Shown: in pieces, positions 2,464 through 29,000 of the stretch
How positions within the stretch are numbered: position 1 is the first letter of the stretch
Layout of the letters: each line of letters begins with the position of its first letter
Source of the DNA: Octopus vulgaris
Lineage: Eukaryota
NCBI GenBank assembly: GCA_951406725.2
Contig: OX597819.1
Coordinates: forward strand, 114,824,001 to 114,888,000
Direction: 5' to 3'
DNA length: 64,000 bases
Notes under the pieces: generated by a model
Told to the model about the DNA's origin: nothing
What the model saw: the letters and a program-made list of their open reading frames with translations, nothing else
Databases searched by the model: none
Position numbers and translations under genes: made by a program

Positions 2464-2469
<6 letters not shown>

Positions 2470-2800: not shown

Positions 2801-2829
2801 ATATATATATTTATATATATTACTACTTA

Positions 2830-5469: not shown

Positions 5470-5885
5470 TAACGTTCATCCTTCGGGTTCGAAGATGACC
5501 ATTGACATCATTTGGTGGAATTGCTGCTATGAGACCGGAGGTGGCTGGTGAGGCCAATCCGGGCAAGAAAGCCCTCCCGCAGGTGGGTCAGAAGGGGGTA
5601 GGGGCTGTGCTATTGGTGCAGGTGGCTCTGGTTTTCTGCATCTGGCGTTTCTGTTCTGCTGACTGAATCTTTCTCTCCTCGGCTGTCTTTGCACCTGTTG
5701 TGATTGCGCTGCGCCAGGATGAGCGGTCGGCAGCAAGTGTCTCCCAAGTCTCTGTGCCGATGGAGAAGTCTTTCAGAGAGACTTTGAGACTGTCCTTGAA
5801 GCGCTTCTTCTGCCCTCCAACTTTGCATTTGCCCTGGCTGAGTTCACTGTAGAAGAGCTGTTTTGGGATGCGAGTGTCGGACATT
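5470..5885 (-). mobile_element. RTE-clade (BovB-like) 3' fragment amplified with the array; copies at ~28770-29183, ~31897-32308 and ~34097-34513
   Basis: MSDTRIPKQLFYSELSQGKCKVGGQKKRFKDSLK...WETLAADRSSWR; the 34 kb copy retains CPTCGRGF...H...H. Empty site AAACAAATACAGAACATTGAC is present in other units. Confidence 0.9.
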
Positions 5886-6592
5886 GACACTACACCTTAA
5901 GCTCTCTGTTCCAATTTTTCATTGTAAAACATTTATGATGGTTAGTGTTCTATTGCAGATAGTGGGAGTGTGTTTCTTGTTCAATTGCAGTCCTGAGATC
6001 TTACTTCATGGGCAAAGCCCAACAATAGATTACCATCCTGGTATTTTAAAAATTTGTTAATTTAGATATCTTAAAAGAATTTGAGCAAGTGGATTGCTTG
6101 AAGGCACTTTTTTTCTAAGCTTAAATACTTAGGAACCGTCTGGATTATATAAAACAATTTTACTATTTACATCCTATATCAAGACATGAAAATCAAAATT
6201 ATACAACTAGAAATCGTGGAAAAATGTTTTCCTTACTAAATAAGGAAACAAAGGTTATATATATATCATCATCATCATCATCGTTTAGCGTCCGTTTTCC
6301 ATGCTAGCATGGGTTGGACGGTTCTACTGGGGTCTGTGAAGCCAGAAGGCTTCATCAGGCCCAGTCAAATCTGGCAGTGTTTCTACGGCTGGATGCCCTT
6401 CCTAATGCCAACCACTCCGTGAGTGTAGTGGGTGCTTTTTACGTGCCACCCGCACTGGTGCCAGACAGAGCTGGCAAACGGCCACGAACGGATGGTGCTT
6501 TTTATGTGCCACCGGCACGAGAGCCAGGCGAGGCTGGCAACGGACACGAAACGGGGCGGTGCTGGCAATGGTCGCGAAACGGAAAGTTCTCT

Positions 6593-6790
6593 TACATGCC
6601 ACCGGCACTGCTAACACATCTGCAATTTCCATTGATCGATTTCGATTCTGATCCTCACTTGCCTCAACGGGTCTTCACAAGCAGAGTTTTGACATGCCAC
6701 CGGCACTGGTAGCACATCCGCTATTTCCATTGATCGATTTCGATTCTGCTCCTCACTTGCCTCAACACGTCTTCACAAGTAGAGTTTTGT
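6593..6790. repeat. ~99 bp tandem duplication in the RTE 3' UTR, with repeated TGCCACC(C/G)GCAC motifs
   Basis: ACATGCCACCGGCACTG...TTTCCATTGATCGATTTCGATTCTG...CCTCACTTGCCTCAAC occurs twice. The short motif is also at ~6444 and ~6507. Confidence 0.85.
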
Positions 6791-6859
6791 GTCCCAAGAA
6801 GGGAAGGTATGCATACGTTGGCCGGCTCCATCCCATGTAGAAGGCCACGGGTTATGGAC

Positions 6860-9800
6860 TCACTTGTCCTGCCGGGTCTTCTCGTGCACAGCACACTTCC
6901 AGAGGTCTCGGTCTCTAGTCATTTCCTCAGTGAGACCTAAAGTTCGAAGGTCGTGCTTCACCACCTCGTCCCAGGTTTTCCTGGGTCTGCCTCTTCCACA
7001 GGTTCCCTCAACCGCTAGGGTGTGGCACTTTTTCACACAACTATCTTCATCCATTCTCGCCACATGACCATACCAGCGCAAACGTCTCTCTTGCACACCA
7101 CAACTGATGCTTCTTAGGTCCAGCTTTTCTCTCAATGTACTTACACTCTGCCGAGTGTGAGTACCGGCATTACACATCCATCGGAGCATACTGGCTTCAT
7201 TTCTAGCGAGCTTACGCATATCCTCAGCAGTCACGGCCCATGTTTCACTGCCATGTAGCATGGCTGTTCGTACACACGCATCATACAGTCTGCCTTTCAC
7301 TCTGTGCGAGAGGCCTTTTGTCACCAGCAGAGGTAAGAGCTCTCTGAACTTTGCCCAAGCTATTCTTACTCTAGCAGTTACACTTTCAGCACACCCGCCC
7401 CTGCTGCTGACTTGGTCACCTAGGTAACGGAAACTATCAACTATTTCTAGTTTTTCTCCCTGGAAAGTGACGGAAGTTGGTCTCAGAGCATTTTCAGTGT
7501 TTATTGTTCCTGAGCATCTGCCACATACAAAAACCATCTTCCTAGTTAGCCTTCCTTTGACATTGCTGCATCTCTTATGTGTCCATAGCTTACACTTGGT
7601 GCATCTTATAGAGTTTCTACCTACACCTTTTCTACAGATCGAGCAGGGCCATCTACCTGAAGGTGTTTGTGATTTGTCTACCTTCCTACTGATTACGACT
7701 TTGGTTTTAGCTAGATTGACTCTGAGGCCCTTCGATTCTAATCCTTGTTTCCACACCTGAAACTTCTCCTCCAGTTCTGATAGCGACTCAGCAATTAGAG
7801 CAAGGTCATCAGCATAGAGGAGCTCCCAAGGGCATCCTGTCTTGAATTCCTCCGTTATTGCCTGGAGGACTATGATAAATAGGAGGGGGCTGAGTACTGA
7901 GCCTTGGTGGACTCCTACCTCTACCCGGAATTCTTCACTGTACACATTTCCAACCCTCACCCTACTAGCGGCGTCCCTATACATGGCCCACACAGCTCTC
8001 ACTAACCATTCATCTATCCCTAGTTTCCTCATTGCCCACCAGATAAGGGATCGGGGGACCCTGTCGAAGGCTTTCTCCATGTCAACAAAAGCCAGGTACA
8101 GGGGCTTATCTTTGGCTAGGTATTTCTCCTGCAGCTGCCTTACCAGGAATATAGCATCAGTAGTACTTTTCCCTGGCACAAACCCAAACTGCATCTCATC
8201 TAAACTAACTCTCTCTCTAATTAGTTGGGCTATGACCCTCTCCGTAACCTTCATCACCTGGTCCAACAGCTTGATACCTCTGTAGTTATTTGTATCTAGG
8301 GCATCACCTTTACCTTTGTAGCAGTTGACTATTATACTGCTACACCAGTCATTGGGTATGACCCCTTTGTGTATCACCTGATTAACTATACGGGTGACTA
8401 GGCTATAGCCGACACTACCAGACATTTTGAGCATCTCTGCAGTGATTCCTGATGGGCCTGGGGCTTTCCCTGTCTTCATGCTTCTAATTGCCTTAGCTAC
8501 CACGGAACTATCAACTCGGATAGCTGGTCCCTCTGTTGGGTCAACATTCGGCAGACTCTCTTTATCCCATTCATTTTCTTCATTCAGCAACCTTTCATAG
8601 TGGCATCTCCAAACCTCTCTCTTTGCATCCTCATTTAGCGCAAGTGAACCATCTTCCATGCGAACACACTTCTCTCCTACCACATCACGATTCTCTCTCA
8701 CACACTGTCTTGCAACACGAAACACCTCCAGTCTTTGGTCCTCACGGCGCAGAACATTGGCAAATTTTTTCTTATCTGCTTCCCCTCTGGCTAAATAAAC
8801 CTGTCTCCTAGCTTCTCTTCTGGCAGTCTGATACAATCCCCTGCTACCCCCATTTTTCCAGACCTTCCAAGCCTGTCTCTTTTCTCTAATAGCCCTGTCT
8901 ACAATATTGTTCCACCACCACGTTATTCTAGGTCGAGAGGGGACTTTGCACCAGCCACAGATCTGGTCAGTGGCTCTCAGCAGGTTGTCCCTTAGAAACG
9001 TCCAGCTGTCTTCTACCCCCTGTGATGCTCTATCCCCTTCTACTTCGTCAGAGGCTTCAAGTAATATGTCCCTAAATCTCTGTCCATTTGCAGGATCTTT
9101 AAGCTTCCAGATCCTTCTTCTCCATATTTGTCGTCTTCTGGTTGTCCTCCTAGTCCTGATCCTAAAGTCACTAACTACCAGTCTATGTTGTGGGGTACAT
9201 TCTTCACCTGGGAAGGTTTTGGCATTTATAAGCAGCCATCTCTCCCTTTGCCTTGTAAGGATGTAGTCAATTTGGCTGGTATGTTGGCCCGATTGGTAAG
9301 TGACTAGGTGGCTGGTAGGTTTCCTGAAGTTAGTGTTGCAAATCATAAGATTATTTGCATCGCAGAACTCCAGCAGCCTGGTTCCCTCCTCGTTGCGGGA
9401 GCCATAGCCATAGCCTCCATGTACGCCATGGAAGCCCCCAGCATGTCGTCCAACGTGACCATTGAAGTCACCAGCCACAAAGATAAGGTCTCTGTCATTC
9501 GTCAACGAGGTAGTCTGCAGTAGAGTGTCATAGAATCGGTCTTTCTGTCCATCGGGTAGCCCCGACTGAGGAGCATAGGCTGATATAATGGTTGCTAAAC
9601 TATGATGAAGCACTAATCTAATCTTAAGTATTGTCACATACTCTGATTACCTCAATTACTTTATCTACCCATTTCTCAGCGATAAGTATACCCACGCCAC
9701 CAACCCCGTCAGTGTTCCCTGCCCAGAAAATCTTGTACCTGCGTTCCTTGCCTGTGAGGAACCTAGCTGATCCTCCTCTCCACCTTATTTCTTGCATGCA

Positions 9801-10025
9801 ACATATATCCACACATCTCCGTTCAAGCATCTCAACTATCTCACCAGACCTACCTTTCAGAGTGCCAACGTTGAGGGTGCCAACCCTGAGGGTGTGGGAG
9901 GCATGGGCTCTAGAGACCCTGGGACGGTGGACAGTAGCTTCGTGTACCTGAAAAGAAAGCTCGCATTTGGCAGAATTCATGTGCAAGAAATGAAGTAGTA
10001 AAGTAGCCTTCAGTACAACCTGCAT
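6860..10025 (-). CDS. RTE ORF: APE endonuclease plus reverse transcriptase with an inserted PHD-like Cys/His finger; one frameshift at ~9630
   Basis: TLNVGTL, CMQEIRW, SAYAPQ, AGDFNGHVG and QIDYIL (APE); FVDMEKAFDRV, GVHQGSVLSPLLF and LYADD (RT); RRLRWYGHV and GRGRPRKTW (RTE C-terminus). ORF 9624..10025 joins 6860..9637 across VIRVCD/ILKIRL. Confidence 0.95.
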
Positions 10026-12561
10026 AACGCTAGCCTTTCATATTTTGCACTGTATGAACATTACCTTACATAGGTCGAGACTAGGGGTAGGGAGGGGTAG
10101 GGATGGTGAGAGCATTTGCAGTCTTCATGGGAAGCAACCCCGGAATGGCAGAGAATAGGAACTTCCGGCATGCGTGTTGGGGGTGGGATGGCGGGTGCAC
10201 CGTAGCTGAGTAAAGAGGTTCTGTTAATCGTATGAGCTAGCAAATGGGTTTGTATGAATCGGGAGACAACACTAAACGAAAAATTGAAAAATCAGAGTGG
10301 CTATGAACCTGTAGACAAGTCTAAACGAAAAAAAATGTTTGAGCTAGACAGGGTAATGAGGGAATACTGAAAGAATGAGGGACAATACAATGAGATGGAA
10401 ATTGAAGAATAGAGAAAGAATAAGAATAAGTGCAAGAAAGAAGGTAGTCGTAGCGAGGTTGGACGATTCACTTAACTTTTAGCCATTCATGATCTGTGCG
10501 TATTCTTTAGATATTTTGAAGCGAGTGGGGTTAACGATAAATGCGATCGCTCTTTTATATATGGCGATGATGGTTTTGGGAAGGGGGGGCATAGAGAACC
10601 ATGGCGATGATGGTTATGGGAAGGGGGGACATAGAGAGAGAGAGAGATAGGGTTAGTTAGAGAGAGGTCAAGGGACACGTGACAATAAGCGGTGTGAGGG
10701 AATTTGACTGGGGACGGCATTGTCGATAAATAAACATTAGATAAATAGGTTTGAAAATCAGAGGGAATATCATTATTGATAGCTAATATAACACCGTAGC
10801 TGAGTAAAGAGGTTCTGTTAATCGTATGAGCTAGCAAATGGGTTTGTATGAATCGGGAGACAACACTAAACGAAAAATTGAAAAATCAGAGTGGCTATGA
10901 ACCTGTAGACAAGTCTAAACGAAAAAAAATGTTTGAGCTAGACAGGGTAATGAGGGAATACTGAAAGAATGAGGGACAATACAATGAGATGGAAATTGAA
11001 GAATAGAGAAAGAATAAGAATAAGTGCAAGAAAGAAGGTAGTCGTAGCGAGGTTGGACGATTCACTTAACTTTTAGCCATTCATGATCTGTGCGTATTCT
11101 TTAGATATTTTGAAGCGAGTGGGGTTAACGATAAATGCGATCGCTCTTTTATATATGGCGATGATGGTTTTGGGAAGGGGGGGGCATAGAGAACCATGGC
11201 GATGATGGTTATGGGAAGGGGGGACATAGAGAGAGAGAGAGATAGGGTTAGTTAGAGAGAGGTCAAGGGACACGTGACAATAAGCGGTGTGAGGGAATTT
11301 GACTGGGGACGGCATTGTCGATAAATAAACATTAGATAAATAGGTTTGAAAATCAGAGGGAATATCATTATTGATAGCTAATATAACACCGTAGCTGAGT
11401 AAAGAGGTTCTGTTAATCGTATGAGCTAGCAAATGGGTTTGTATGAATCGGGAGACAACACTAAACGAAAAATTGAAAAATCAGAGTGGCTATGAACCTG
11501 TAGACAAGTCTAAACGAAAAAAAATGTTTGAGCTAGACAGGGTAATGAGGGAATACTGAAAGAATGAGGGACAATACAATGAGATGGAAATTGAAGAATA
11601 GAGAAAGAATAAGAATAAGTGCAAGAAAGAAGGTAGTCGTAGCGAGGTTGGACGATTCACTTAACTTTTAGCCATTCATGATCTGTGCGTATTCTTTAGA
11701 TATTTTGAAGCGAGTGGGGTTAACGATAAATGCGATCGCTCTTTTATATATGGCGATGATGGTTTTGGGAAGGGGGGGCATAGAGAACCATGGCGATGAT
11801 GGTTATGGGAAGGGGGGACATAGAGAGAGAGAGATAGGGTTAGTTAGAGAGAGGTCAAGGGACACGTGACAATAAGCGGTGTGAGGGAATTTGACTGGGG
11901 ACGGCATTGTCGATAAATAAACATTAGATAAATAGGTTTGAAAATCAGAGGGAATATCATTATTGATAGCTAATATAACACCGTAGCTGAGTAAAGAGGT
12001 TCTGTTAATCGTATGAGCTAGCAAATGGGTTTGTATGAATCGGGAGACAACACTAAACGAAAAATTGAAAAATCAGAGTGGCTATGAACCTGTAGACAAG
12101 TCTAAACGAAAAAAAAATGTTTGAGCTAGACAGGGTAATGAGGGAATACTGAAAGAATGAGGGACAATACAATGAGATGGAAATTGAAGAATAGAGAAAG
12201 AATAAGAATAAGTGCAAGAAAGAAGGTAGTCGTAGCGAGGTTGGATGATTCACTTAACTTTTAGCCATTCATGATCTGTGCGTATTCTTTAGATATTTTG
12301 AAGCGAGTGGGTATTTCTTTATTATGATTATAAAAATCGATTACACAGAAGGACAAATACAGGACATACATACAAAAAAAACATTTAAGAGATTCGATTA
12401 AAAATTTTCATTTACATTGGGATTATTCATTATAACATAAATGTCCTTTACATGACCAGTAGAACAAACAACAGTACATGAACTTATAATCTCACTGGAG
12501 TTTTTACACCCCGGCAATTTATGAGGCCCTGCAGCTTTTATTTCCTCTCCTTCCTCCATGG

Positions 12562-15500
12562 TCAAGCTGGGTTTCTGACACCCACCTTTTTTTCCACTTC
12601 CTTCCATCTTTTCTCATACACACCCCGCAGTAAGATCCTCTTTTCCAGCCCCATTTTGCTCTTCAGATGATATCTGAAGTAAGTGAGCAAGCCGGGGCCG
12701 GAGACAAAGGATCCTATCGCGGCTCCTTCCATTCTTGTTCTCCACATACATTCTTTTACTACTGCAACCGTGCAGTGAAAACATGCCTCACCTTCCTTCG
12801 AGAGTCCAGTTGGCGGTATCATCTTAATCATAGACTCAGCCGACAGCTGTACTCGTCCCAGATGCGATAACACGTGTTCTGCGTAACTTATCAAGTCGGA
12901 CAACTTCCGACAGTGAACAAAAGCGTGCTGGACGGTTTCATCGTCCAACTCGCACCTTGGACACGTCGGTGGCACTGAAACTCCGTGCCGCGATAACTTC
13001 TCGCGAACAGGTAAAGCATTCCTATAGCACTGCCAGGCCAGGGATCTTTGGAAATTATCCAAATACCCCGACCTGAAAGTTTTTTTAAACAGGTTGGTAA
13101 GCTGGTCTTCGTCAAACCCCAGAGCCCCTCCTAGGACGTCGTCGTTTTTTACCTCTACCAGCTTTCTATAAAATACCGAGGTGGTATTTCCGCAGCCGGC
13201 CTTGCCCGCCTTGTGGATCAGCGTGAGTGCCTGTCGGCACTCCTTTTGCCATGGAGTCAGTTTCCATCTTTTGATGTAACCGGGTTTAAAATTCACTAAG
13301 GAGGCCGGTCTCGGGAAAAATCCCCCTGCCAGCGGACTCCACACCTTATCACCCTCCAGGTGGTGCCAGAGATGCCTTAGCCTCAACGCATGTCTGCGCA
13401 TCATCAACCAAGGCATTCCTAACCCACCCTTTAACGGTTCCTGGCAGCAAACGGAGCGCCTCACAAGTGGCCTTCCTCCCTTCCACAAAAAGTGGAAAAG
13501 GATTCGCTCCAACTTGTTAAGCCATGAATCGGGGCAAGGGACAACGGTCAGGCGGTAGGTGATTACAGATGCAATGAACATCTGCACCACCTCCGCCTTT
13601 CCTTTCAAGGACAGAAACCTTCCGGACCAGGTCCGTACTATGGCTTCCACCTTGCTCGTCACCTCACTCCAGTTCTTCTCCGTTTGGGAGTCTGGCCCAA
13701 ACCAAACTCCCAGCAACTTAACAGGGCCATCCGTCCAGTGTCCCACGACACTGGACGATATCGACTTGCTCCTCCAGGTGCCGAGGCGCAAGCCGACCGA
13801 TTTGTCCTTGTTAACCTTTGCTCCTGCCACCGCCTCGTATCCTCTGATAGCCTCCTCTACACAAGGTAGTTGGGCCTCTTTGGACACGATGAGGGTGACG
13901 TCATCCGCATAAGCAGTAACCGTCCTCCCACCTCCGATTTCATCCGAGTTACTCCCCAGCCTCTCCAACTTTCGCAGCAATGGCTCAAGAGCCAATACGT
14001 ACAAAAGTGGTGACAAGGGGCACCCCTGACGCACTGAACACTCGATCGAAAACGGTTCCGTTAGGTAACCGTTTATCTGGACGGTGGACTTGATGCCGCT
14101 ATACATAGCGGAGATCCACCCGCGAAATTCAGGGCCCAGCCCAGCCGCTTCGAGGACCGTCGCCAGGTACCCATGGTCTACCCTATCGAAGGCTTTACTT
14201 TGGTCTAAATGGACCATTACCCCGCCTTTGCCGGCTAATTTACCCACCCTATCTAAGGTGTAGCGTATAAGGTGAAGGTTGTCCTGGATCGACCTGCCTG
14301 GAATTGCACATGTCTGTGCTCTCCCTACAAGTTTCTCCACGACAACCGTCAACCTTTTTGCCAACACCTTGGCCAAAATCTTTAACTCTACATTAAGTAG
14401 AGTTATGGGCCTGTAGTTACTGATGTTATCCCCCTTGCTCGGGTCTTTCTGGATTAGCGTCACCACTCCCCGGCTTACAGAACTGGGAATTCTCCCATTC
14501 TGCTGCCAGTTCGTGTAGACGCCCGCCAGTATTCCCCCGAACAAGTCCGGCATACTTTGGTAAAACTCGTAGGGCAGACCATCCAACCCCGGCGACTTCT
14601 CCCCGGCGCATCCGGCCAGTATCTCCTTTATCTCCGCGGGAGTGATCGCTCCTTCACAGCACTCCACCTCACGCCCCGCGAGCCGCGGCCCGCCGGCTAG
14701 GAAGTCCTTTAAGGCTCTCCCCCGATCCAGCGGACCACCACCCCCGAACACGCGGGCGGAATGCTGGTGAAGAAACTTTTGCATCTCCTCCTGTCCATAG
14801 ATCTTTTGTCCCTGTTCGTCAGTTAAAGATTTGATTGAGGCTCTGTTGCCTCTCTGACTCTCCACACGACGGGCCCATCCGGCCACGTTAATACCTTCTC
14901 GTTTCCCAGCGCATAGCTTAGCTCTGACTCTGCAACCTTCGTGTTTGGAGTTAAGGTGACGGTACAATACCGTCCTTGCCGCCAACACTCCGGATGCAGA
15001 GCCAGCTTCCATTGCCTCGTCTAGATTCTTAACTAAATCGCCCTCTAGACTAGCCCTATCTATCCTTAGCTGATTGCTAAATCTAACGGACTCTGAACGA
15101 ATGGCTCTTTTGAGGGCGTGCCACCATCTATTGTTAATGATGGTGCCACACAATGCCCTCTGAACTAACACCTTAATCCGGGCACGGAAGTCTTCACAAT
15201 TCAAAATAGCCTTGTTCAGCTTCCAGTACCCGGGTCCCTGTCTATGACACTTGTCTAATTGCATCCTACACGTCACAAATTTGTGATCCGAGTAGGGTAC
15301 AATATGAAATTGTGGACAACTAAACGTATCCTTATCTCTTTTCTTGATAAATATCCTATCTAGATACGATCTGTGTGAGCCGTCGTTGTTACTCCACGTC
15401 CACTGTGGAACGCTCGGCTCATCCAGTCGGTAACGGTCCACTAGATCAAAGCTCTCTAGTAGACCCTTGAGGCTAGGATTCCCCTTCCTATTGGTTGAGC

Positions 15501-15951
15501 CAACACTGTCGATCTGCGCTTCAAGGACAGTGTTAAAGTCCCCTACTAGGATTACTGTTTTCGACGTCGCTAAAAAGGGCTCCAGGTTCCGAAAAAAACC
15601 CCTCTGTCTACCCTCGTTCGGGGCGTAGACAGCTACCAACCTGAAGGACTGTTTACTTACGTGAGTCACATCCAGGACAACCAGCCTGCCTTCTGGGTCC
15701 AGAAAGACAGTACTTACCTGCAAGTCCAAGCTCTTCCTGATGAAGACTGCCACGCCTCTGCCTCTTCCTCGGCTAGGAGAAATAAATTTCTCGAAACCAT
15801 TTAGAAGAGGCGAGAACGCTTGGGTCTCGCTCATCTTGGACTCGGTTGCAATGGCTATATCTACACCATGTGTCGTGAGGTCGTTCAGGAAACAAATTTG
15901 TTTCCGTTTCGACCCCATTCCACGTACATTTATACAACCCAGCTTAGCCAT
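12562..15951 (-). CDS. Tx1 ORF2 (APE endonuclease, RT, C-terminal CCHC), intact, 1129 aa
   Basis: CINVRG, VYAPN, VGDFN, YLDRIF, YSDH, GPGYWKLN, KSPGLDG, DQSKAFDRVDH, VRQGCPLSPLLY, AYADD, CPRCELDDETVQHAFVHC. Confidence 0.97.
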   Translation of the reverse strand: MAKLGCINVRGMGSKRKQICFLNDLTTHGVDIAIATESKMSETQAFSPLLNGFEKFISPSRGRGRGVAVFIRKSLDLQVSTVFLDPEGRLVVLDVTHVSKQSFRLVAVYAPNEGRQRGFFRNLEPFLATSKTVILVGDFNTVLEAQIDSVGSTNRKGNPSLKGLLESFDLVDRYRLDEPSVPQWTWSNNDGSHRSYLDRIFIKKRDKDTFSCPQFHIVPYSDHKFVTCRMQLDKCHRQGPGYWKLNKAILNCEDFRARIKVLVQRALCGTIINNRWWHALKRAIRSESVRFSNQLRIDRASLEGDLVKNLDEAMEAGSASGVLAARTVLYRHLNSKHEGCRVRAKLCAGKREGINVAGWARRVESQRGNRASIKSLTDEQGQKIYGQEEMQKFLHQHSARVFGGGGPLDRGRALKDFLAGGPRLAGREVECCEGAITPAEIKEILAGCAGEKSPGLDGLPYEFYQSMPDLFGGILAGVYTNWQQNGRIPSSVSRGVVTLIQKDPSKGDNISNYRPITLLNVELKILAKVLAKRLTVVVEKLVGRAQTCAIPGRSIQDNLHLIRYTLDRVGKLAGKGGVMVHLDQSKAFDRVDHGYLATVLEAAGLGPEFRGWISAMYSGIKSTVQINGYLTEPFSIECSVRQGCPLSPLLYVLALEPLLRKLERLGSNSDEIGGGRTVTAYADDVTLIVSKEAQLPCVEEAIRGYEAVAGAKVNKDKSVGLRLGTWRSKSISSSVVGHWTDGPVKLLGVWFGPDSQTEKNWSEVTSKVEAIVRTWSGRFLSLKGKAEVVQMFIASVITYRLTVVPCPDSWLNKLERILFHFLWKGGRPLVRRSVCCQEPLKGGLGMPWLMMRRHALRLRHLWHHLEGDKVWSPLAGGFFPRPASLVNFKPGYIKRWKLTPWQKECRQALTLIHKAGKAGCGNTTSVFYRKLVEVKNDDVLGGALGFDEDQLTNLFKKTFRSGYLDNFQRSLAWQCYRNALPVREKLSRHGVSVPPTCPRCELDDETVQHAFVHCRKLSDLISYAEHVLSHLGRVQLSAESMIKMIPPTGLSKEGEACFHCTVAVVKECMWRTRMEGAAIGSFVSGPGLLTYFRYHLKSKMGLEKRILLRGVYEKRWKEVEKKVGVRNPA

Positions 15952-15979
15952 TGTGGGTTAGAGAGAAAATTAAATGTAC

Positions 15980-17402
15980 TCACGGTTGGGAAAGGGAGCA
16001 TGACAGTTTAAATCTGCCTGCTTCCCCTTCTTCCGCTGCTGCAGGGCTCTTGACCGGCGTTGCCACCGGGCTCTGGGTGGGTGTGGTTGCCGGGGTTATT
16101 ATCAGTTTGCCCTCCATTACCTCTTTGGTCACGTCTCTTATCAGTCGGTTCCTCAGGTGTTCCTGAAGAACCTCCTCCTTCCACTCGTCCTCCCCTACCT
16201 TCGCGAAGCGAGCGGTTGCTTTCACATCTGTGGCTCTACTATACAATACAAATCTTGAGAATTTACAACACTTGTACACTCTTTCGTTTTTCTCGTCGAA
16301 AGCTATGATCCTCTCGTTCTTCTGTAGGCACTTTTTTATGTCTTGTTTTATGGGGAGGGGCTTGGCAAACTGTTTTCCAATGAAAACAGTGCCATGGGGG
16401 TAGGGTTGGGGGATTTGCTTGATGTGTGTGTCTGCTGTGTTTGCTGTTTTTTTCTTTGTTTGGGGAGGGGAGTCCTGGGTATTATCTTTTTTTCTTTTAT
16501 GAGTGACTTGTGTGTAGTCCATTGGTTCTGTATGGTCCGTTTTTGTTTTTGTACTTGTCTTCGTCTTTTTGTTGTCTTTTCCTGTTTTCTCCCCTTCAGT
16601 GTTGGGGACACTTGGAGGAGGCGCTTCTTCTGTTCTCTTCTTTTTTATACAATTTGATCTGACGTGACCCTTCTCTCCACACTTGAAACATCTGGGTCTA
16701 CGTCCCTCCACTGCAACTCTCATTGACGTCCCGTCCTCATTGAAGATTCTATCGGGCAGGCCCTCTAAAATTTTGTTCTCCGCCTGCCACGAGGAGTTCC
16801 AGGGTCTGACCCTTCCACCGCACCACCTCTTTCCTTCTCATCTGCAGTATCGATATCTCTCGTTCAATATTGTGCAGGACCGCCGCTGCTACCCACATGA
16901 TGTCGTACCCTCTGGGTATGTCCTCTACCAGCAACTTCGCTGTACGCTTCCCCATGTACGAGGGTAGCAGCATGATGTCGTTTTTTAGGGTCAACGACGA
17001 CACCTCTCTCGCTACCTCGGCTGTGTCGAAATGTGCCTCGACTGTAGCACTGCGTGCACCTCTAACGACATGACGAATTTTGTCCCACACCGGGGACAGG
17101 CACTTTTCTACCATTTCATTCTTTACATCCATTATCTTCTTTTCTTTAAAGCTGTATACCTTGTAAATAACTATTCTTTCTTTAATCTCTTGTACCTTTG
17201 CCTGCGGCGGTACAAGCCTTATCTCGCCTCCTTCCACTTTTACCAGGTTCCTGAATTCGTACAATTGTTCGATTTTAAACTCGACATCCATCATGGCGCC
17301 GCCCACCGCGGCCGAAAATGACTGTTTGGGTACTTCTTTTTCCTTATTTTCACTTTTTCCCATCACGGGAAAATCCTCCTTCGACGTCAAGTCGAAATCC
17401 AT
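15980..17402 (-). pseudogene. Tx1 ORF1 of copy 1 (single CCHC knuckle), frameshifted at ~16787
   Basis: Split into ORFs 16749..17555 and 15980..16723. There is an extra C (GCCTGCCACG versus GCCTGCACG in copy 2). Contains CFKCGEKGHVRSNC. Confidence 0.9.
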
Positions 17403-17838
17403 TACCTCGAAGGTAATAAAAATACAGTTAATACAAAATTTTCTGCCCCGTAGGGCGAAAATTACCGTTATACAACGGGCACTGTTCAAACAATCAGCAC
17501 AGACAATAATAGCACAAATCCGAACTCTCTTAAATGAAGGCAGCAAATTTCTCACAACGCAGATGAAAGTAACTCGAGAACAAAATTTTTGAAGCGAGTG
17601 GGGTATTTCTTTATTATGATTATATAATCACACATAGAAGGACAAATACAGGACATACATACACAAAAAACATTTAAGAGATTCGTTTTAAAAATTTTCG
17701 TTTACATTTGAATTAAAAAATGAAAATAAATGTCTTTTATATGGCCTAGTAGAACAAACCACAATACATAACTGGAGCTTCTGCACCCCGGCAATTTATG
17801 AGGCCCTGCAGCTTCCACTTCCTCTCTCTCCTCCATGG

Positions 17839-20800
17839 TCAAGCTGGGTTTCTGACACCCACCTTTCTTTCCACTTCCTTCCATCTTTTCTCATACACAC
17901 GCCGTGGTAAGGTCCTCTTTTCCAGCCCCATTTTGCTCTTCAGATGATATCTGAAGTAAGTGGGCAGGCTGGGGCCGGAGACAAAGGATCCTATCGCGAC
18001 TCCTTCCATTCTCGTTCTCCACATGCATTCCTTTACTACTGCAACCGTGCAGTGAAAACATGCCTCACCTTCCTTCGAGAGTCCAGTTGGCGGTATCATC
18101 TTAATCATAGACTCAGCCGACAGCTGTACTCGTCCCAGATGCGATAACACGTGTTCTGCGTAACTTATCAAGTCGGACAACTTCCGACAGTGAACAAAAG
18201 CGTGCTGGACGGTTTCATCGTCCAACCCGCACCTTGGACACGTCGGTGGCACTGAAACTCCGTGCCGCGATAACTTCTCGCGAACAGGTAAAGCATTCCT
18301 ATAGCACTGCCAGGCCAGGGATCTTTGGAAATTATCCAAATACCCCGACCTGAAAGTTTTTTTAAACAGGTTGGCAAGCTGGTCTTCATCAAACCCCAGA
18401 GCCCCTCCTAGGACGTCGTCGTTTTTTGCCTCTACCAGCCCTCTATAAAATACCGAGGTGGTATTTCCGCAGCCGGCCTTGCCTGCCTTGTGGATCAGCG
18501 TGAGTGCCTGTCGGCACTCCTTTTGCCATGGAGTCAGTTTCCATCTTTTGATGTAACCGGGTTTAAAATTCACTAAGGAGGCCGGTCTCGGGAAAAATCC
18601 CCCTGCCAGCGGACTCCACACCTTATCACCCTCCAGGTGGTGCCAGAGATGCCTTAGCCTCAACGCATGTCTGCGCATCATCAACCAAGGCATCCCTAAC
18701 CCACCCTTTAACGGTTCTTGGCAGCAAACGGAGCGCCTCACAAGTGGCTTTCCTCCTTTCCACAAAAAGCGGAAAAGGATTCGCTCCAACTTGTTAAGCC
18801 ATGAATCGGGGCAAGGGACAACGGTCAGGCGGTAGGTGATTACAGATGCAATGAACATCTGCACCACCTCCGCCTTCCCTTTCAAGGACAGAGACCTTCC
18901 GGACCAGGTCCGTACTATGGCCTCCACCTTGCTTGTCACCTCACTCCAGTTCTTCTCCGTTTGGGAGTCTGGTCCAAACCAAACTCCCAGCAACTTAACA
19001 GGGCCATCCGTCCAGTGTCGTGGGACACTGGACGATATCGACTTGCTCCTCCAGGTGCCGAGGCGCAAGCCAACCGATTTGTCCTTGTTAACCTTTGCTC
19101 CTGCCACCGCCTCGTATCCTCTGATAGCCTCCTCTACACAAGGTAGTTGGGCCTCTTTGGACACGATGAGGGTGACGTCATCCGCATAAGCAGTAACCGT
19201 CCTCCCACCTCCGATTTCATCCGAGTTACTCCCCAGCCTCTCCAACTTTCGCAGCAGTGGCTCAAGAGCCAATACGTACAAAAGTGGTGACAAGGGGCAC
19301 CCCTGACGCACTGAACACTCGATCGAAAACGGTTCCGTTAGGTAACCGTTTATCTGGACGGTGGACTTGATGCCGCTATACATAGCGGAGATCCACCCGC
19401 GAAATTCAGGGCCCAGCCCAGCCGCTTCGAGGACCGTCGCCAGGTACCCATGGTCTACCCTATCGAAGGCTTTACTTTGGTCTAAATGGACCATTACCCC
19501 GCCTTTGCCGGCTAATTTACCCACCCTATCTAAGGTGTAGCGTATAAGGTGAAGATTGTCCTGGATCGACCTGCCTGGAATTGCACATGTCTGTGCTCTC
19601 CCTACAAGTTTCTCCACGACAACCGTCAACCTTTTTGCTAACACCTTGGCCAAAATCTTTAACTCTACATTAAGTAGAGTTATGGGCCTGTAGTTACTAA
19701 TATTATCCCCCTTGCTCGGGTCTTTCTGGATTAGCGTCACCACTCCCCGGCTTACAGAACTGGGAATTCTCCCGTTCTGCTGCCAGTTCGTGTAGACGCC
19801 TGCCAGTATTCCCCCGAACAAGTCCGGCATACTTTGGTAAAACTCGTAGGGCAGACCATCCAACCCCGGCGACTTCTCCCCGGCGCATCCGGCCAGTATC
19901 TCCTTTATCTCCGCGGGAGTGATCGCTCCTTCACAGCACTCCACCTCACGCCCCGCGAGCCGCGGTCCGCCGGCTAGGAAGTCCTTTAAGGCCCTCCCCC
20001 GATCCAGCGAACCACCACCCCCGAACACGCGAGCGAAATGCTGGTGAAGAAACTTTTGCATCTCCTCCTGTCCATAGATCTTTTGTCCCTGTTCGTCAGT
20101 CAAAGATTTGATTGAGGCTCTGTTGCCTCTCTGACTCTCCACACGACGGGCCCATCCGGCCACGTTAATACCTTCTCGTTTCCCAGCGCGCAGCTTAGCT
20201 CTGACTCTGCAACCTTCGTATTTGAAGTTAAGGTGACGGTACAATACCGTCCTTGCCGCCAACACTCCGGATGCAGAGCCAGCTTCCATTGCCTCGTCTA
20301 GATTCTTAACTAAATCGCCCTCTAGACTAGCCCTATCTATCCTTAGCTGATTGCTAAATCTAACGGACTCTAAACGAATGGCTCTTTTGAGGGCGTGCCA
20401 CCATCTATTGTTAATGATGGTGCCACACAATGCCCTCTGAACTAACACCTTAATCCGGGTACGGAAGTCTTCACAATTCAAAATAGCCTTGTTCAGCTTC
20501 CAGTACCCGGGTCCCTGTCTATGACACTTGTCTAATTGCACCTCACACGTCACAAATTTGTGATCCGAGTAAGGTACAATATGAAATTGTGGACAACTAA
20601 ACGTATCCTTATCTCTTTTCTTAATAAATATCCTATCTAGATACGATCTGTGTGAGCCGTCGTTGTTACTCCACGTCCACTGTGGAACGCTCGGCTCATC
20701 CAGTCGGTAACGGTCCACTAGATCAAAGCTCTCTAGTAGACCCTTGAGGCTAGGGTTCCCCTTCCTATTGGTTGAGCCAACATTGTCGATGTGCGCTTCA

Positions 20801-21227
20801 AGGACAGTGTTAAAGTCCCCTACTAGGATTACTGTTTTCGACGTCGCTAAAAAGGGCTCCAGGTTCCGAAAAAACCCCTCTGTCTACCCTCGTTCGGGGC
20901 GTAGACAGCTACCAACCTGAAGGACTGTTTACTTACGTGAGTCACATCCAGGACAACCAGCCTGCCTTCTGGGTCCAGAAAGACAGTACTTACCTGCAAG
21001 TCCAAGCTCTTCCTGATGAAGACTGCCACGCCTCTGCCTCCTCCTCGGCTAGGAGAAATAAATTTCTCGAAACCATTTAGAAGAGGCGAGAACGCTTTGG
21101 TCTCGCTCATCTTGGACTCGGTTGCAATAGCAATATCTACACCGTGTGTTGTGAGGTCGTTCAGGAAACAAATTTGTTTCCGTTTCGACCCCATTCCACG
21201 TACATTTATACAACCCAGCTTAGCCAT
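17839..21227 (-). pseudogene. Tx1 ORF2 of copy 2, frameshifted in an A-run at ~20870
   Basis: ORFs 20847..21227 and 17839..20718 match copy 1 ORF2. The run is A6 versus A7 in copy 1, which could be an assembly homopolymer error. Confidence 0.9.
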
Positions 21228-21254
21228 TGTGGGTGAGAGAGAAACAAAAAGTAC

Positions 21255-22679
21255 TCACGGTTGTGAAAGGGAGCATGACAGTTTAAGTCTGCCTGCTTCC
21301 CCTTCTTCCGCTGCTGCAGGGCTCTTGACCGGCGTTGCCACTGGGCTCTGGGTGGGTGTGGTTGCCGGGGTTATTATCAGTTTGCCCTCCATTACCTCCT
21401 TGGTCACATCTCTTATTAGACGGTTCCTTAGATGTTCCTGAAGAACCTCCTCCTTCCACTCGTTCTCCCCTACCTTCGCGAAGCGAGCGGTTGCTTTCCC
21501 ATCTGAGGTTCTACTATACAATATAAATCTCGAAAGTTTGCAACACTTGTATACTTTCTCATTTTTCTCATCGAAAGCTATTATCCTTTCGTTCTTCTGT
21601 AGGCACTTTTTTATGTCTTGTTTTATGGGGAGGGGCTTGGCAAACTGTTTTCCAATGAAAACAGTGCCATGGGGGTAGGGTTGGGGGATTTGCTTGATGT
21701 GTGTGTCTGCTGTGTTTGTTGTTTTTTTTCTTGTTTGGGGAGGGGAGTCCTGGGTATTCTCTTTTTTTCTTTTATGAGTGACTTGTGTGTAGTCCATTAG
21801 TTCTGTATGGTCTGTTTTTGTTTCCGTACTTGTCTTTGTCTTTTTGTTGTTTTTACTTGTTTCCTCCCCTTCAGTGATAGGGACACTTTGAGGAGGCGCT
21901 TCTTCCGTTTTTTTCTTTTTAATACAATTGGATCGGACGTGACCCTTCTCTCCACACTTGAAGCATCTGGGTCTGCGTCCCTCTACCGAAACTCTCATGG
22001 ACGTACCGTCCTCATTGAAGATTCTATCTGGCAGGTTTTCAAGGATTTTGTTCTCCGCCTGCACGAGGAGTTCTAGGGTCTGGCCCTTCCACCGTACCAC
22101 CTCTTTCCTTCTCATTTGCAGTATTGATATTTCACGTTCCATGTTGTGCAGGACTGCCGCTGCTACCCACATGATGTCGTACCCTCTGGGTATGTCTTCT
22201 ACCAGTAACTTCGCAGTTCGCTTCCCCATATACGAGGGTAGCAGCATGATGTCGTCGTTTTTTAGGGTCAACGACGACACCTCTTTCGCCACCTCTGCCG
22301 TGTCAAAGTGCGCCTCGACCGTAGCACTGCGTGCACCTCTAACGACATGACGAATTTTGTCCCACACCGGGGACAGGCACTTCTCGACAATTTCATTTTT
22401 CACATCCATTATCTTTTTTTCTTTAAAGCTGTATACTTTATAGATCACGATTCTTTCTTTAATCTCTTGTACTTTTGCCTGTGGCGGTACAAGCCTTATT
22501 TCGCCTCCTTCCACTTTAACTAGGTTCCTGAATTCGTATAGCTGTTCGATTTTAAATTCGACATCCAACATGGCGCCGCCCACCGCGGCCGAGAATGACT
22601 GTTTGGGTACTTCCTTTTCCATATTTTCACTTTTTCCCATCACGGGAAAATCCTTCTTTGACGTCAAGTCGAAATCCAT
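21255..22679 (-). CDS. Tx1 ORF1 of copy 2, intact (~474 aa from MDFDLTS), with a CCHC zinc knuckle
   Basis: Open frame 21255..22835 with the first ATG at 22679. Contains RPRCFKCGEKGHVRSNC and a basic low-complexity linker. Confidence 0.9.
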   Translation of the reverse strand: MDFDLTSKKDFPVMGKSENMEKEVPKQSFSAAVGGAMLDVEFKIEQLYEFRNLVKVEGGEIRLVPPQAKVQEIKERIVIYKVYSFKEKKIMDVKNEIVEKCLSPVWDKIRHVVRGARSATVEAHFDTAEVAKEVSSLTLKNDDIMLLPSYMGKRTAKLLVEDIPRGYDIMWVAAAVLHNMEREISILQMRRKEVVRWKGQTLELLVQAENKILENLPDRIFNEDGTSMRVSVEGRRPRCFKCGEKGHVRSNCIKKKKTEEAPPQSVPITEGEETSKNNKKTKTSTETKTDHTELMDYTQVTHKRKKENTQDSPPQTRKKTTNTADTHIKQIPQPYPHGTVFIGKQFAKPLPIKQDIKKCLQKNERIIAFDEKNEKVYKCCKLSRFILYSRTSDGKATARFAKVGENEWKEEVLQEHLRNRLIRDVTKEVMEGKLIITPATTPTQSPVATPVKSPAAAEEGEAGRLKLSCSLSQP

Positions 22680-22864
22680 TACCTTGAAGGTAATAAAAAC
22701 GCAGGTAATACAAAATTTTCTGCCCCGTAGGGCGAAAATTACCGTTATACAACGGGCACTGTTCAAAACAGTTAGCACAAACACTAGTAGCACAAATCCG
22801 AACTCTCTTAAATGAAGGCAGCAAATTTCGCACAACGCAGATGAAAGTAACTCGAGAACAAAAT

Positions 22865-23032
22865 TTTTGAAGCGAGTGGGGTTAACGATAAATGCGATCG
22901 CTCTTTTATATATGGCGATGATGGTTTTGGGAAGGGGGGGGCATAGAGAACCATGGCGATGATGGTTATGGGAAGGGGGACATAGAGAGAGAGAGAGATA
23001 GGGTTAGTTAGAGAGAGGTCAAGGGACACGTG
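22865..23032 (-). promoter_or_regulatory. Putative Pol II core promoter in each monomer (E-box, CT/GA tract, TATA box, initiator-like CCACTC)
   Basis: Minus strand: GTCACGTG (CACGTG at 23027-23032), (CT)n, TATATAAAAG (22903-22912; also 10552-10561 etc.), then CCCCACTCG ~30 nt downstream. Motif-based only. Confidence 0.55.
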
Positions 23033-26000
23033 ACAATAAGCGGTGTGAGGGAATTTGACTGGGGACGGCATTGTCGATAAATAAACATTAGATAAATAGG
23101 TTTGAAAATCAGAAAATCAGAGGGAATATCATTATTGATAGCTAATATAACACCGTAGCTGAGTAAAGAGGTTCTGTTAATCGTATGAGCTAGCAAATGG
23201 GTTTGTATGAATCGGGAGACAACACTAAACGAAAAATTGAAAAATCAGAGTGGCTATGAACCTGTAGACAAGTCTAAACGAAAAAAAATGTTTGAGCTAG
23301 ACAGGGTAATGAGGGAATACTGAAAGAATGAGGGACAATACAATGAGATAATATATATATTTATATATATTACTGTTTATTGTTTGTGCCTTCTCTTGTA
23401 GCTCTCCCCATAATTCATTTGTTGCACTGAGTCAATTTTCTTTGGGAAGTGGTGTTCCACTGTTAGACACCTTATGGCAAACAAAGAGAACAGAAATCTA
23501 GATGACTGAGAATAAATATTCTCCATAGGAATAGCATGATATCCTTTTTCCTTGTTTTGAATGATCTTGGAATCCAACCAGCCACTGGCCTACAGTGGTT
23601 CCATCATGGTAATATGTAGATGGAGTGTTCTGAGTTCAAATGCGACCAAGGTTGACTTTGCCTTTCATCCTTATGGTGTCGATAAAGTAAGTACCAGTTG
23701 AGTACGGAGGTTGTTGTAATCAACTAACTCCTTCTCTCGAAATTGCTATCCATGTGTCAAAATCTGCAACCAATATGTAGATGGCATGTTGCATCATTAC
23801 TCATGTGGATCCCCAGGTCATGCACCCACTATATCTCTAAAATTGCACTACTCCTCAGCCCAGTGTATTTTGACTGCACTTTGTTGGCTTATAACAGTGC
23901 TTGAAGTTGCTCAGCATTGAACTGCATGTTATGTTCATCAGCTGGCAAAGAAAAGAAGTCACTGACAAAGCACTTTCAAGCGAAGACTATCATGTTTTAT
24001 AGGGGTTCCTAGGACTTTTGTTCAACATGTCCTTCTCTTTTTATGTATAAATCAATATATATTATTCAAAATTCAACAAAGAAATATGAATAAAAGGAGA
24101 TTGTTAATCGTTGGCAGACTCAGTTTCAGGTTTTCCACTCATTTCCATCCATCTTCAGCTGCTTGATATATTTCACTGAGTGACATCCCACAGTCTGTAT
24201 GAATGGTATGGTGGTATGTTGTTCTTGTTTCCTCATGCTCTCAACCTTGTAGGGTCTTAAGCAGTAGGTACTGTTGACAGTATTTATTGGGTGGGTGTTG
24301 CAGTTGGTGACCTGTTCATCTCAACTGGTGTTCCTTTCTCTTTGTGCTCATTTGCTTTTTGTCAGTCATTTGGTACAATGTATTCTTGGATATGTGGCCG
24401 TTATAGGATATCTGATATATTATCCTCAGGTTTCTTGTGTGAAAAGTGTTCACCATGACCCTTTACTGATTTGTATTTGTTACCCATGTCTTACTTCTGT
24501 ATGTAAAAATTACAATTACCAGTTTTTCAATTTTCTAATGTGTTATTCTTAGAATTAAGTTAAATTATGTGAAACCTTTGCAACCTTGATGTCTAGAAAT
24601 TACATTTGTATTTAAGAGCTGTTAATTCCTCCCTTATGCTTCAATATTGAAAGTAGTTTTGAGAAATGGAATGAGTTTCTAGCAATTTCTCATGGAAGAA
24701 AAAAACAAACAACACTTGGCTTGTGAGATTATCTCTGTGCTTGTGTCAAAGCCAATGTTATTTACAGCCATTCTCGAAACTATATCTGCTAGATTGTTCT
24801 ACAATAGATGTTGTTCATTGTTTACATCCATTTTTCTATGCTTATATCAGGTGGAGAAATCTTTTCCAGCTCAGCATCATGCCATTTGTTGCAGTTCCAT
24901 CCTCATTTATTTTGTGTTGCACATTGAGAATAGTTTTCTCTACTTCTTCCCAAATCTTTCTTTTCTGCTTATTCCCATTCCATTAATAGCTTTATACTTG
25001 TTTACCCACTGTCTTTCATCATATCCATTGGATGTTTATACCACTTTAGGCTCCTCCTTTGCACACCATGGTTGATACCTCTTATACACAGTGGCTCTCT
25101 CATATAACCTGTTTTCGTTGGGTACACAGTATAATATTCCAACCTACATCTTTTTTGCATATTGAGCATGGGCATTTCTTAAGTGGCAGTTCTACCTATT
25201 TCTTTTCCTGACAAGAGTTTTACTAAGTTTACTTTAATCCTTCTTGATTCTTGGTTTTGACTTCTGTATTTTGAATTTCTTTTCCAATTCTTAGACTGAT
25301 TCAGGTGGGAAATAAGTCAAAATTAAGATCTCAAAGTTAATGAGCCAGCCAACTTTCGGTTAAGGGAATACATAGATACCTCATCCATCCAATCAAAATT
25401 CTCTTCAAACCATTTTGTCTACGATTCTTAACTGGTATTATTAATGATGGAAAATTGCAATTTCATATACACTCACATTTCTTCCATATGTTTCTTAGCA
25501 AGGGATTTGAGTGAGGCTGTGTAGAAATTACATTTGTATTTAAGAGCTGTTAATTCCTCCATTATGCTGCAATATTCAAAGTGGTTTTGAGAAATGGAAT
25601 GAGTTTCTAGCAATTAATCAAACCATTATCACTATTTGATATCCCTAAAAGCTCATTTCAAAATCTTTAGTGCATTAACTGTTAGTTAATGGTGAATCAA
25701 ATACAGAACATTGACACTACACCTTAAGCTCTCTGTTCCAATTTTTCATTGTAAAACATTTATGATGGTTAGTGTTCTATTGCAGATAGTGGGAGTGTGT
25801 TTTTTGTTCAATTGCAGTCCTGAGATCTTACTTCATGGGCAAAACCCCACAATAGATTGCCATCCTGGTATTTTAAAAATTTGTTAATTTAGATATATTA
25901 AAAAAATTTGAGAAAGTGGATTGCTTGAAGGCACGTTTTTTCTAAGCTAAATACTTAGGAACTGTCTGGATTATGTAAAAATATTTTACTATTTACATCC

Positions 26001-29000
26001 GATATCAAGACATGAAAATCAAAATTATACAACTAGAAATCATGGAAAAATTTTTTCGTTACTAAATAAGGAACAAAAGTTATATATATATATATATATA
26101 TATTTATTAATACAAATAAATGAAAGAATGGAGTTGAACGACGATTTAACAAAATTCCTTTATTCTTGACATAGGTTTCGAAGGCTGCATATTCCTAATT
26201 TCGAAGGAATAAGGGGTTCATTATGCCGCCTTCGCATCAGGAAAAACAAGGAACGTATGTCAGCATCAAGATGAACAAAAACTTTTAGATGGCTGCCCAC
26301 ACGGAGCCCATAGCGATAATGAGTGTTTCTTTAAAATATTCCGTTATAAGCAGACGTCAAAAATGGTTGAATGTAGAAGATTCTAGAAAGTTCAAGGGTT
26401 CAAACAAGGTTGGAGGAGAGAGGTCTAAGAATATAAATATATATATTTATATATATTACTACTTATTGTTTGTTCCTTCTCTTGTAGCTCTCCCCATAAC
26501 TCATTTGTTGCACTGAGTAAATTTTCTTTGGCAAGTGGTGTTCCACTGTTAGACACTTTATGGCAAACAAAGAGAACAGCAATCTAGATGACTGAGAATA
26601 AATATTCTCCATAGGAATAGCATGATATCCTTTTTCCTTGTTTTGAATGATCTTGGAATCCATCCAGCCACTGGCCTACAGTGGTTCTATCTTGGTAATA
26701 TGTAGATGAAATGTTCTGAGTTCAAATGCCACCAACGTTGACTTTGCCTTTTATCCTTATGGTGTCGATGAAATAACAGTTGAGTACTGGGGTTGATGTA
26801 ATCAACTTACCCCTTCCCTCGAAATTGCTGGCCTTGTGCCAAAAACTGCAAACGATATGTAGATGGCATGTTGCATCATTATTCATGTGGATCCCCAGGT
26901 CATGCACCCACTATATCTCTAAAATTGCATTACTCCTCGGCCCAGTGTATTCTGACTGCACTCTGCTGGCTTATAACAGTGCTTGAAGTTGCTCAACGTT
27001 GAACTGCATGTTATGTTCATCAGCTGGCAAAGAAAAAAAGAAGTCACTGACAAAGCACTTTCAAGTGAAGACTATCATGTTTTATAGGGGTTCCTAGGAC
27101 TTGTGTTCTGTATGTCCTTCTCATCTTATGGATAAATCAATATTTATTATTCAAAATTCAACAAAGAAATATGAATAAAAGGGGATCGTTGATCATTGGC
27201 GGACTCAGTTTAAGGTTTTCCACTCCATCCATCTTCAGCTGCTAGATATATTTCACTGAGTGACATCCCACTGTCTGTATGAATGGTATGGTGGTATGTC
27301 GTTCTTGTTTCCTCATGCTCCCCACCTTAAGCTGTAGGTACTGTTGATAGCATTCATTGGGTGAGTGTTGCAGTTGGTTACCTGTTCATCTTAACTGGTG
27401 TTCCTTTATCCTTGTGCTCATTTGCTTTTTGTCAGTCATTTGGTACAATGTATCCTTGGAAATGTGGTCATTATAGGATATCTGATATACTATCCTCAGG
27501 TTTCTTGTGTGAAAAGTGTTCACCATGGCCCTTTACTGATTTGTATTTGTTACCCATGTCTTTATGTAAAAATTACAATTACCAGTTTTTCAATTTTCTA
27601 ATGTGTTATTCTTAGAATTAAGTTAAATTATGTGAAACCTTTGCAACCTTGATGTCTAGAAATTACATTTGTATTTAAGAGCTGTTAATTCCTCCATTAT
27701 GCTTCAATATTCAAAGTGAGTTTGAGAAATGGAATGAGTTTCTAGCAATTTCTCAAGGAAGAAAAAAAAAAATCATCACTCAGCTTGTGAGATTTTCTCT
27801 GTGCTTGTGTCAAAGCCAATGTTATTTACAGCCATTCTCGAAACTATATCTGCTAGATTGTTCTACAATAGATGTTGTTCATTGTTTACATCCATTTTTC
27901 TATGCTTATATCAGGTGGACAAATCTTTTCCAGCTCAGCATCATGCCATTTGTTGCAGTTCCATCCTCATTTATTTTATGTTGCACATTGAGAATAGTTT
28001 TCTCTACTTCTTCCCAAATCTTTCTTTTCTGCTTATTCCCATTCCATTAATAGCTTCATACTTGTTTACCCACTGTCTTTCATCATATGCATTGGATGTT
28101 TATACCACTTTAGGCTCCTCCTTTGCACACCAAGGTTGATACCTCTTATACACAGTGGCTCTCTCATATAACCTGTTTTCGTTGGGTACACCGTATAAAA
28201 TTCCAACCTACATCATTTTTTGCATATTGAGCATGGGCATTTCTTAAATGGCAGTTCTACTTTTTTTTTTCCTGACAAGAGTTTTACTAAGTTTACCTTA
28301 TTCCCTTTTGAATCTTGGTTTTTGACATCTATGTTTTGAATTTCTTTTCCAATTCTTAGACTGATTCAGCTGGGGACTAGGTCAAAATTAAGAGATCTCA
28401 AAGGTAGTGAGCCAGCCAATTTTTGTTTAAGGGAATACATAGATACCTCATCCATCCAATCAAAATTCTCTTCAAACCATTTTGTCTACGATTCTTAACT
28501 GGTATTATTAATGATGGAAAGTTGCAATTTCATATACAATCACATTCGTTCCATATGTTTCTTAGCAAGGGATTTGAGTGAGGCTGTGGAGAAATTACAT
28601 TTGTATTTAAAAGCTGTTAATTCCTCCCTTATGCTTTAATATTCAAAGTGGTTTTGAGAAATGGAATGAGTTTCTAGCAATTAATCAAACGATTATCACT
28701 ATTTGATATCCCTAAAAGCTCATTTCAAAATCTTTAGTGCATTAACTGTTAGATAATGTTGAAACAAATAACGGTCGTCCTTCGGGTTCGAAGATGACCA
28801 TTGACATCATTTGGTGGAATTGCTGCTATGAGACCGGAGGTGGCTGGTGAGGCCAATCCGGGCAAGAAAGCCCTCCCGCAGGTGGGTCAGAAGTGGGTAG
28901 GGGCTGTGCTATTGGTGCAGGTGGCTCTGGCTTTCTGCATCTGGCGTTTCTGTTCTGCTGACTGAATCTTTCTCTCCTCGGCTGTCTTTGCAGATGTGGT

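Follow-up and report, generated by a model that had tools for sequence, protein, structure and literature searches.

The stretch of Octopus vulgaris DNA studied here (contig OX597819.1 of assembly GCA_951406725.2, positions 114,824,001 to 114,888,000; the whole 64,000 nucleotides are called the window) carries two full-length long interspersed nuclear elements (LINEs), A and B, which lie head-to-tail on the minus strand within the tandem 5' monomers of another, RTE-type LINE (Table 1). As the first-pass annotation had noted, the two elements are set among three copies of a 16-mer, and the same 16-mer stands unfilled in neighbouring monomers, at 10514, 11108 and 11703; the six occurrences in the window compare with a chance mean of 0.01. 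Sequence comparison across the genome suggests, with a probability of roughly 0.6, that this LINE family is biased to RNA polymerase II (Pol II) start sites, borrows the promoter of its host and homes by pairing of read-through RNA. The RTE monomer would then be one of several 'home' promoters.

Table 1. Coordinates of the insertion block in the window (first 15 rows) and of foreign leaders at other loci of the family
Feature	Position	Strand	Remark
Host RTE-type LINE, body	6267..10202	(-)	endonuclease-reverse transcriptase (EN-RT) frame
Host RTE-type LINE, short-repeat 3' tail	about 6267-6281	(-)	
Host RTE-type LINE, long open reading frame (ORF)	6860-9346	(-)	upstream EN part frameshifted
5' monomers of RTE-type element, ~3.5 tandem units of 594 bp	10203..12311	(-)	three empty target sites
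Target-site duplication, 3' side of A, 16 bp	12296..12311	(-)	
Copy A, 5275 bp	12312..17586	(-)	no poly(A) tail; AATAAA at 12318-12323
ORF2 of A, 1129 aa	12562..15951	(-)	APE endonuclease, RT, zf-RVT
ORF1 of A	15980..17402	(-)	frameshifted
Target-site duplication between B and A, 17 bp	17587..17603	(-)	
Copy B, 5261 bp	17604..22864	(-)	
ORF2 of B	17839-21227	(-)	broken by 1-nt indel
ORF1 of B, 474 aa	21255..22679	(-)	one CCHC knuckle
Target-site duplication, 5' side of B	22865..22881	(-)	
Upstream partial monomer, 5' end of RTE-type insertion	22882..23349	(-)	
TATA box TATAAAAG	22903..22910	(-)	30 bp upstream of duplication
Leader T2	C7:13508777		
Leader T3	C7:109683314		
Leader T6-like	C11:75468477 and C7:13496763		
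Leader T6, then T3 remnant	C19:6251054		
Leader T4, doubled	C27:38309151		

The domains of the two elements agree with those of the Tx1 clade, with an APE endonuclease, an RT and a C-terminal zinc motif (zf-RVT) in ORF2 and a single CCHC knuckle in ORF1. The best solved relative of ORF2 was human L1 ORF2p (E 3e-65), and the named relatives of the RT, all unannotated proteins, came from Argonauta (63%, the nearest), turtle (43%), lancelet (39%) and fish (38%). No named Tx1 reference was among the matches, and we take the Tx1 label from the first-pass annotation and from general knowledge of the clade. A fold model of ORF1 was uninformative (predicted local distance difference test score, 34). 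Target-site duplications of 13-24 bp were found at 36 of 60 ends and 5'-truncated copies are present, as expected of target-primed reverse transcription. The poly(A) tail that is canonical for L1 was absent from all 60 junctions, one of which has five A in its first six bases. The family, of roughly 100 copies, is probably best placed in the L1/Tx1 group, as a LINE with two ORFs and an APE-type endonuclease.

Copies A and B are 95.4% identical. Neither is intact, A having a whole ORF2 with a frameshifted ORF1 and B the reverse, and these indels could be assembly errors in homopolymers. Between the two ORF1 sequences there are 80.5 synonymous against 29.5 replacement changes (per-site values dS 0.33 and dN 0.027), which bears out the synonymous excess reported earlier from two quoted stretches, both present; for ORF2 the values were dS 0.046 and dN 0.012, and the last 280 bases differ by 11-18%. 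Because of these dS and dN values, A and B are different lineages under purifying selection, and a local duplication of one copy, against which the first-pass annotation had already argued, is ruled out by dS and by tree position. The lineages also recombine, since the 5' and 3' trees disagree. The GGG versus GGGG difference at the 3' junctions is present as described and is compatible with either order of insertion of A and B. An assembly artefact is unlikely as a type of explanation, given the many other arrays and the tandem junctions in runs X3 and X9; none of the listed contigs spans the window's own tandem. The idea that the 16-mer is the element's own terminus was ruled out.

The element in which A and B sit has a single EN-RT frame and a short-repeat tail, an architecture compatible with the RTE clade; we use the RTE label on this ground and from general knowledge, not from a tree. 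The whole block (6267-23349) is bounded by an (AT)n duplication and lies inside a satellite of ~3 kb. Among 20 sampled stretches around the 16-mer, 19 reach the downstream side, and in all 19 an RTE body directly follows the last monomer; the 594-bp monomer is therefore part of the RTE-type element, as the first-pass annotation had it. Pattern searches, which covered the 2.8-Gb genome, found 249 copies of the 16-mer (control 0), in monomer runs of 1 to about 31. A small-RNA gene was not found in the monomer, with no Rfam match up to E 10.

For the family as a whole, a 3'-end pattern gave 88 matches (control 8), nine of which were not element ends, and a 5'-body pattern gave 77. Together these define 75 loci, namely 60 terminal 3' ends, 12 further loci and three known by their 5' end only. 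The 16-mer (target T1) accounts for four loci, on four chromosomes, and other RTE-type 5' regions for eight (T2 five, T3 two, T7 one; at C2:59.41 only monomers were seen, the RTE body being seen at its paralogue). The hosts at T2, T3 and T7 have EN domains 76-82% identical to that of the window, and their target sequences differ. T4 (12 loci) lies in a dispersed repeat of at least 332 copies, T5 (17 loci, several of them segmental duplicates) in a promoter-like sequence that has 40 or more paralogues in clusters on C27 and C2, and T6 (2 loci) in another monomer; the remaining 32 loci are single sites. Head-to-tail arrays are common and hold up to 10 copies; examples are those at C9:59.204-59.253 Mb (10 copies; L128, L129) and C5:29.18-29.21 Mb (six).

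These counts bear on the view of the first-pass annotation, in which a sequence-specific endonuclease is specialised on the 16-mer of the RTE monomer. The exact site is filled at four loci and also in contigs of two differently labelled organisms (B and C), where the incoming head at the head-to-tail junction is a different one; moreover, all 11 3' ends of one lineage lie within RTE-type promoters. Against this, 71 of the 75 loci lie elsewhere than in the 16-mer, clean duplications of 13-24 bp occur at sequences unrelated to it, only nine of the 249 genomic 16-mers flank an element, and none of 15 held-out 5' ends, described below, falls at the 16-mer. The other RTE-type targets differ in sequence and share the distance from a TATA box. 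The 12 of 75 loci (16%) in RTE-type 5' regions, T1 included, stay below the >20% of flanks used to recognise a target-specific family (PMC4494074), and T5 reaches 17 of 75 only if likely duplicates are counted. Specialisation on the 16-mer thus did not survive the tabulation of flanks and is very improbable.

What the insertion sites have in common is their spacing from a TATA box. Matches to TATAWAWR with at most one mismatch, starting at -34 to -24 before the duplication and in the same sense, were scored against shifted controls. Such a match was present at 25 of 32 full-length loci (control 87/891), at 10 of 16 non-redundant full-length site types (control 43/443, p 3e-7) and at five of ten full-length single sites (control 23/275, p 7e-4). 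At eight of the 16 site types it began at exactly -29 in the junction register, and among 27 rebuilt empty sites the -30 bin held 11 matches, compared with 0-4 in every other sense bin and no mirror peak downstream; an antisense count at -30 is an effect of the near-palindromic motif. The spacing was equal at unlike sequences, comprising three RTE-type subfamilies, a multigene-like repeat and another monomer. Three TATA-negative full-length sites lie shortly before the 5' end of a sister element. In the window, TATA spacing and leaders point to a start site at or near the first bases of 22865..22881.

Several points weigh against a bias to start sites. The scoring window was picked after the junctions had been seen, five sites with short duplications were entered by hand, and 16 of the 60 ends were dropped for want of a duplication or a 5' end. 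Truncated copies were not enriched for TATA matches (2/12, control 30/336). The held-out set, 15 unseen 5' ends for which the prediction had been fixed beforehand, gave a mixed outcome. A match was present at four of the 14 loci that could be scored; counted by site type the figure was three of six (p 0.015), and among three previously unseen single sites one had it. Three calls were made by eye. The commonest held-out target, the short form of T4 (8 loci), had no TATA match; the long form has one at -29. Single sites showed neither a CpG excess nor a first-exon splice donor, a donor-like motif at C7:13503533 being the ORF2 start of another element. Finally, no sampled RTE copy begins at the inferred start (monomer position 269).

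Some of these observations could be explained without any active targeting of start sites. In this main alternative, a promoterless element might insert wherever a few bases match its read-through 3' end, with only those copies that reach a start site by chance becoming masters, whose daughters home by homology to paralogues of that promoter, so that the TATA box would be a founder effect. This would account for the repeat targets and the truncated copies, whose single sites have TATA at background level (1/11), and it is in keeping with the linkage of target bases to lineage, with the filled Helitron-like sites, mostly of the minor variant that matches the leader, and with the single TATA match among the three new single sites. 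Homing does not, however, explain why 6 of 13 full-length single sites in the pooled data have a TATA box (p 5e-4 against 9%; the contrast with truncated copies is not significant, p 0.08), nor how one lineage came to occupy four RTE-type promoters that share only their 2-3 first bases. On balance, such an origin of the pattern appears rather unlikely.

The ends of the elements offer a second line of evidence. In several copies a foreign leader stands between the element body and the copy's own duplication; it repeats the duplication sequence of another target, beginning 0-3 bases from its start (Table 1). Leaders of this kind also occur in runs X3 and X9, and contigs of organisms B and C have two tandem junctions, one at T6 and one at the T1 16-mer, the latter bearing a T3 leader. 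Such leaders are the expected trace of transcription from a host promoter that would start in the upstream duplication. Extra bases are also gained at the 5' end by HeT-A of Drosophila (5' tags). HeT-A resembles the octopus family in its head-to-tail arrays and in having a promoter upstream of the copy, but there the promoter is the neighbour's 3' untranslated region at telomeres and the element has no EN or RT, whereas here the promoter would be foreign and the sites are dispersed (PMC5537684).

At the other end, only about 6 bases separate AATAAA from the 3' junction, so that the RNA should extend into the downstream duplication, given the usual spacing of poly(A) cleavage. Across 21 single sites, related elements tend to share the first bases of the target (Mantel rho 0.31, p 0.01), and each lineage has a repeat 'home' with identical first bases; at C21, C22, C5:147.45 and C27:22869304, the junction has the bases of the lineage where the target differed. 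Tx1-like ORF1 starts of sister families, in the same sense, were found within 2 kb behind 8 of 60 3' ends, whereas no sister-family ORF2 end stands directly before any of 57 5' ends, though diverged ORF2 ends are perhaps less detectable. Because of this asymmetry, new copies seem to enter on the promoter side.

A possible explanation for the recurrent filling of the same repeats is passive, with one insertion per repeat family followed by spread of the carrier through Helitron rolling circles, RTE retrotransposition, segmental duplication, gene conversion or unequal crossing over. Carrier spread certainly accounts for some loci. The copies at C2:14.70, 14.71 and 14.72 have a common internal deletion, those at C27:26.27/26.28 and C27:26.16/26.23 resemble duplicates, the array copies at C9:59.2 hardly differ, the ends of the T4 host are Helitron-like, and the conflict between 5' and 3' trees is also in its favour. 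As a general explanation it is nevertheless improbable, as five copies at the RTE 16-mer belong to different 3' clades and monomer positions, junctions within arrays bear different leaders, and the TATA-spaced single sites are left without explanation.

The favoured explanation builds on features read directly from sequence, namely the TATA spacing, duplications of 13-24 bp, 3' ends without a poly(A) tail, the foreign leaders, the lineage-linked bases and the arrays. Insertion would occur in sense about 30 bp behind a TATA box, at the presumed Pol II start, from which the copy would be transcribed by the host promoter into an RNA that begins in the upstream duplication and carries a host leader. 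This RNA would pass AATAAA into the downstream duplication, where a few bases could anneal at the nick in the target and initiate reverse transcription. Daughters would thereby home either to other copies of the promoter at which the parent sits or to sites sharing its first 3-7 bases, and as the start site would persist before each new copy, further copies, sister families included, could stack there. The bias itself may stem from open promoter DNA or from a hypothetical tether to TBP or the initiation complex. A more specific version, in which the LINE is tethered to TBP/TFIID, nicks at +1, is promoterless and keeps at both ends an RNA memory of its last promoter that is inherited but can be switched, with lineages hopping between promoters of RTEs, Helitrons, sister LINEs and host gene clusters, is offered tentatively and would be the less expected outcome.

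The target choice of LINEs is usually put down to the sequence specificity of the endonuclease, or to a tether to Pol III factors in the case of Dictyostelium; Pol II start-site placement would, if true, be a third rule of LINE targeting. The Dictyostelium elements TRE5-A and NLTR-A are L1-type LINEs positioned relative to a promoter, and the ORF1 protein of TRE5-A binds TFIIIB subunits including TBP (PMC5911963). Their placement is strict, 40-54 bp upstream of Pol III genes and in opposite orientation (PMC5911963), whereas the octopus family appears to be partially biased to Pol II-type TATA boxes in the same sense. Mu, P, Tf1, MLV and piggyBac, which are DNA transposons or long terminal repeat (LTR) elements, are known to favour transcription start sites, and human L1 shows no targeting to transcribed or open regions (PMC7337890). 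The octopus LINE, by contrast, is a non-LTR element whose spacing is precise almost to the base pair and whose own RNA seems to depend on the promoter. In R1Bm and SART1Bm, 3' RNA bases anneal to the nicked target (PMC7265360), and R2 is co-transcribed from its target (cited in PMC4494074). These elements have one fixed sequence target (PMC7265360), whereas here the move of a lineage to another promoter would bring different pairing bases.

Tx1 families with mobile elements as targets include Xenopus Tx1L in Tx1D, the crocodilian Tx1-Mar in Mariner-N4 and Tx1-9_AMi in Harbinger, and Tx1-8_Crp and Tx1-4_AMi in LTR retrotransposons (Kojima 2015, PMC4494074). The octopus family resembles them in its fixed positions in mobile elements, tandem insertions around one duplication and foreign 5' heads (PMC4494074). 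They use one or two positions in one target type (PMC4494074), however, compared with at least seven repeat targets plus single sites here, which share TATA spacing and not sequence. Transcription from flanking DNA has been proposed for SINEU and Tx1-Mar, and the passages of that report available to us mention neither a LINE target nor a rule based on TATA boxes or start sites (PMC4494074). A survey of octopus repeats describes recently active L1-Tx1 and RTE families, as far as its accessible portion goes without analysis of targets (PMC13282606). No LINE placed at Pol II start sites was found in the open literature, a scope that leaves aside Repbase and subscription papers, including Kojima and Fujiwara 2004. 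If true, the start-site rule could explain how Tx1 elements switch among unrelated targets, and the known transposon-targeting families may follow the same hidden rule. Insertions could silence RTE copies and members of a host gene cluster, because each sets a poly(A) signal behind the promoter, and nested leaders would form a readable record of promoter switches and could predict start sites.

Among the repeat targets, T4 (flanks in L161, L159 and L130) is a non-autonomous Helitron-like repeat of ~1.1-1.3 kb that carries a decayed Tx1-like ORF1 start, and a minor variant of it is preferentially filled; we presume its ends to be Helitron-like from their general pattern. T5 (L144:6002-6330; C27:22.8-26.3 Mb, C2:14.6-14.7 Mb) is a putative promoter or first-exon-like sequence and the target of two LINE families. 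The RTE-type elements fall into several subfamilies with mutually unrelated monomers that nonetheless have a TATA box. Very long arrays of their 5' monomers occur at C1:150.109-150.128 Mb (L063-L090), C2:91.33 Mb and C3:9.59 Mb, with about 31, 17 and 24 units of ~600 bp, respectively, and each array runs into an RTE body. In the RTE-type ORF of the window, a PHD-like cysteine cluster follows the RT core (7530-7645; a weak Pfam match below the cut-off).

Elsewhere in the window, the ~3 kb repeat that surrounds the RTE-type insertion is complex and satellite-like, with many diverged copies (88-97%) at 1220-6266 and 23350-41444. Remnants of other Tx1-like families lie at 45190-45985 and 53779-54999, the former being 48-60% related to the elements stacked behind the studied LINE at T5 and two single sites. 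A palindromic repeat of 0.6 kb was found at 49193-49804 and a 2.4-kb tandem duplication (96%) at 57535-62400.

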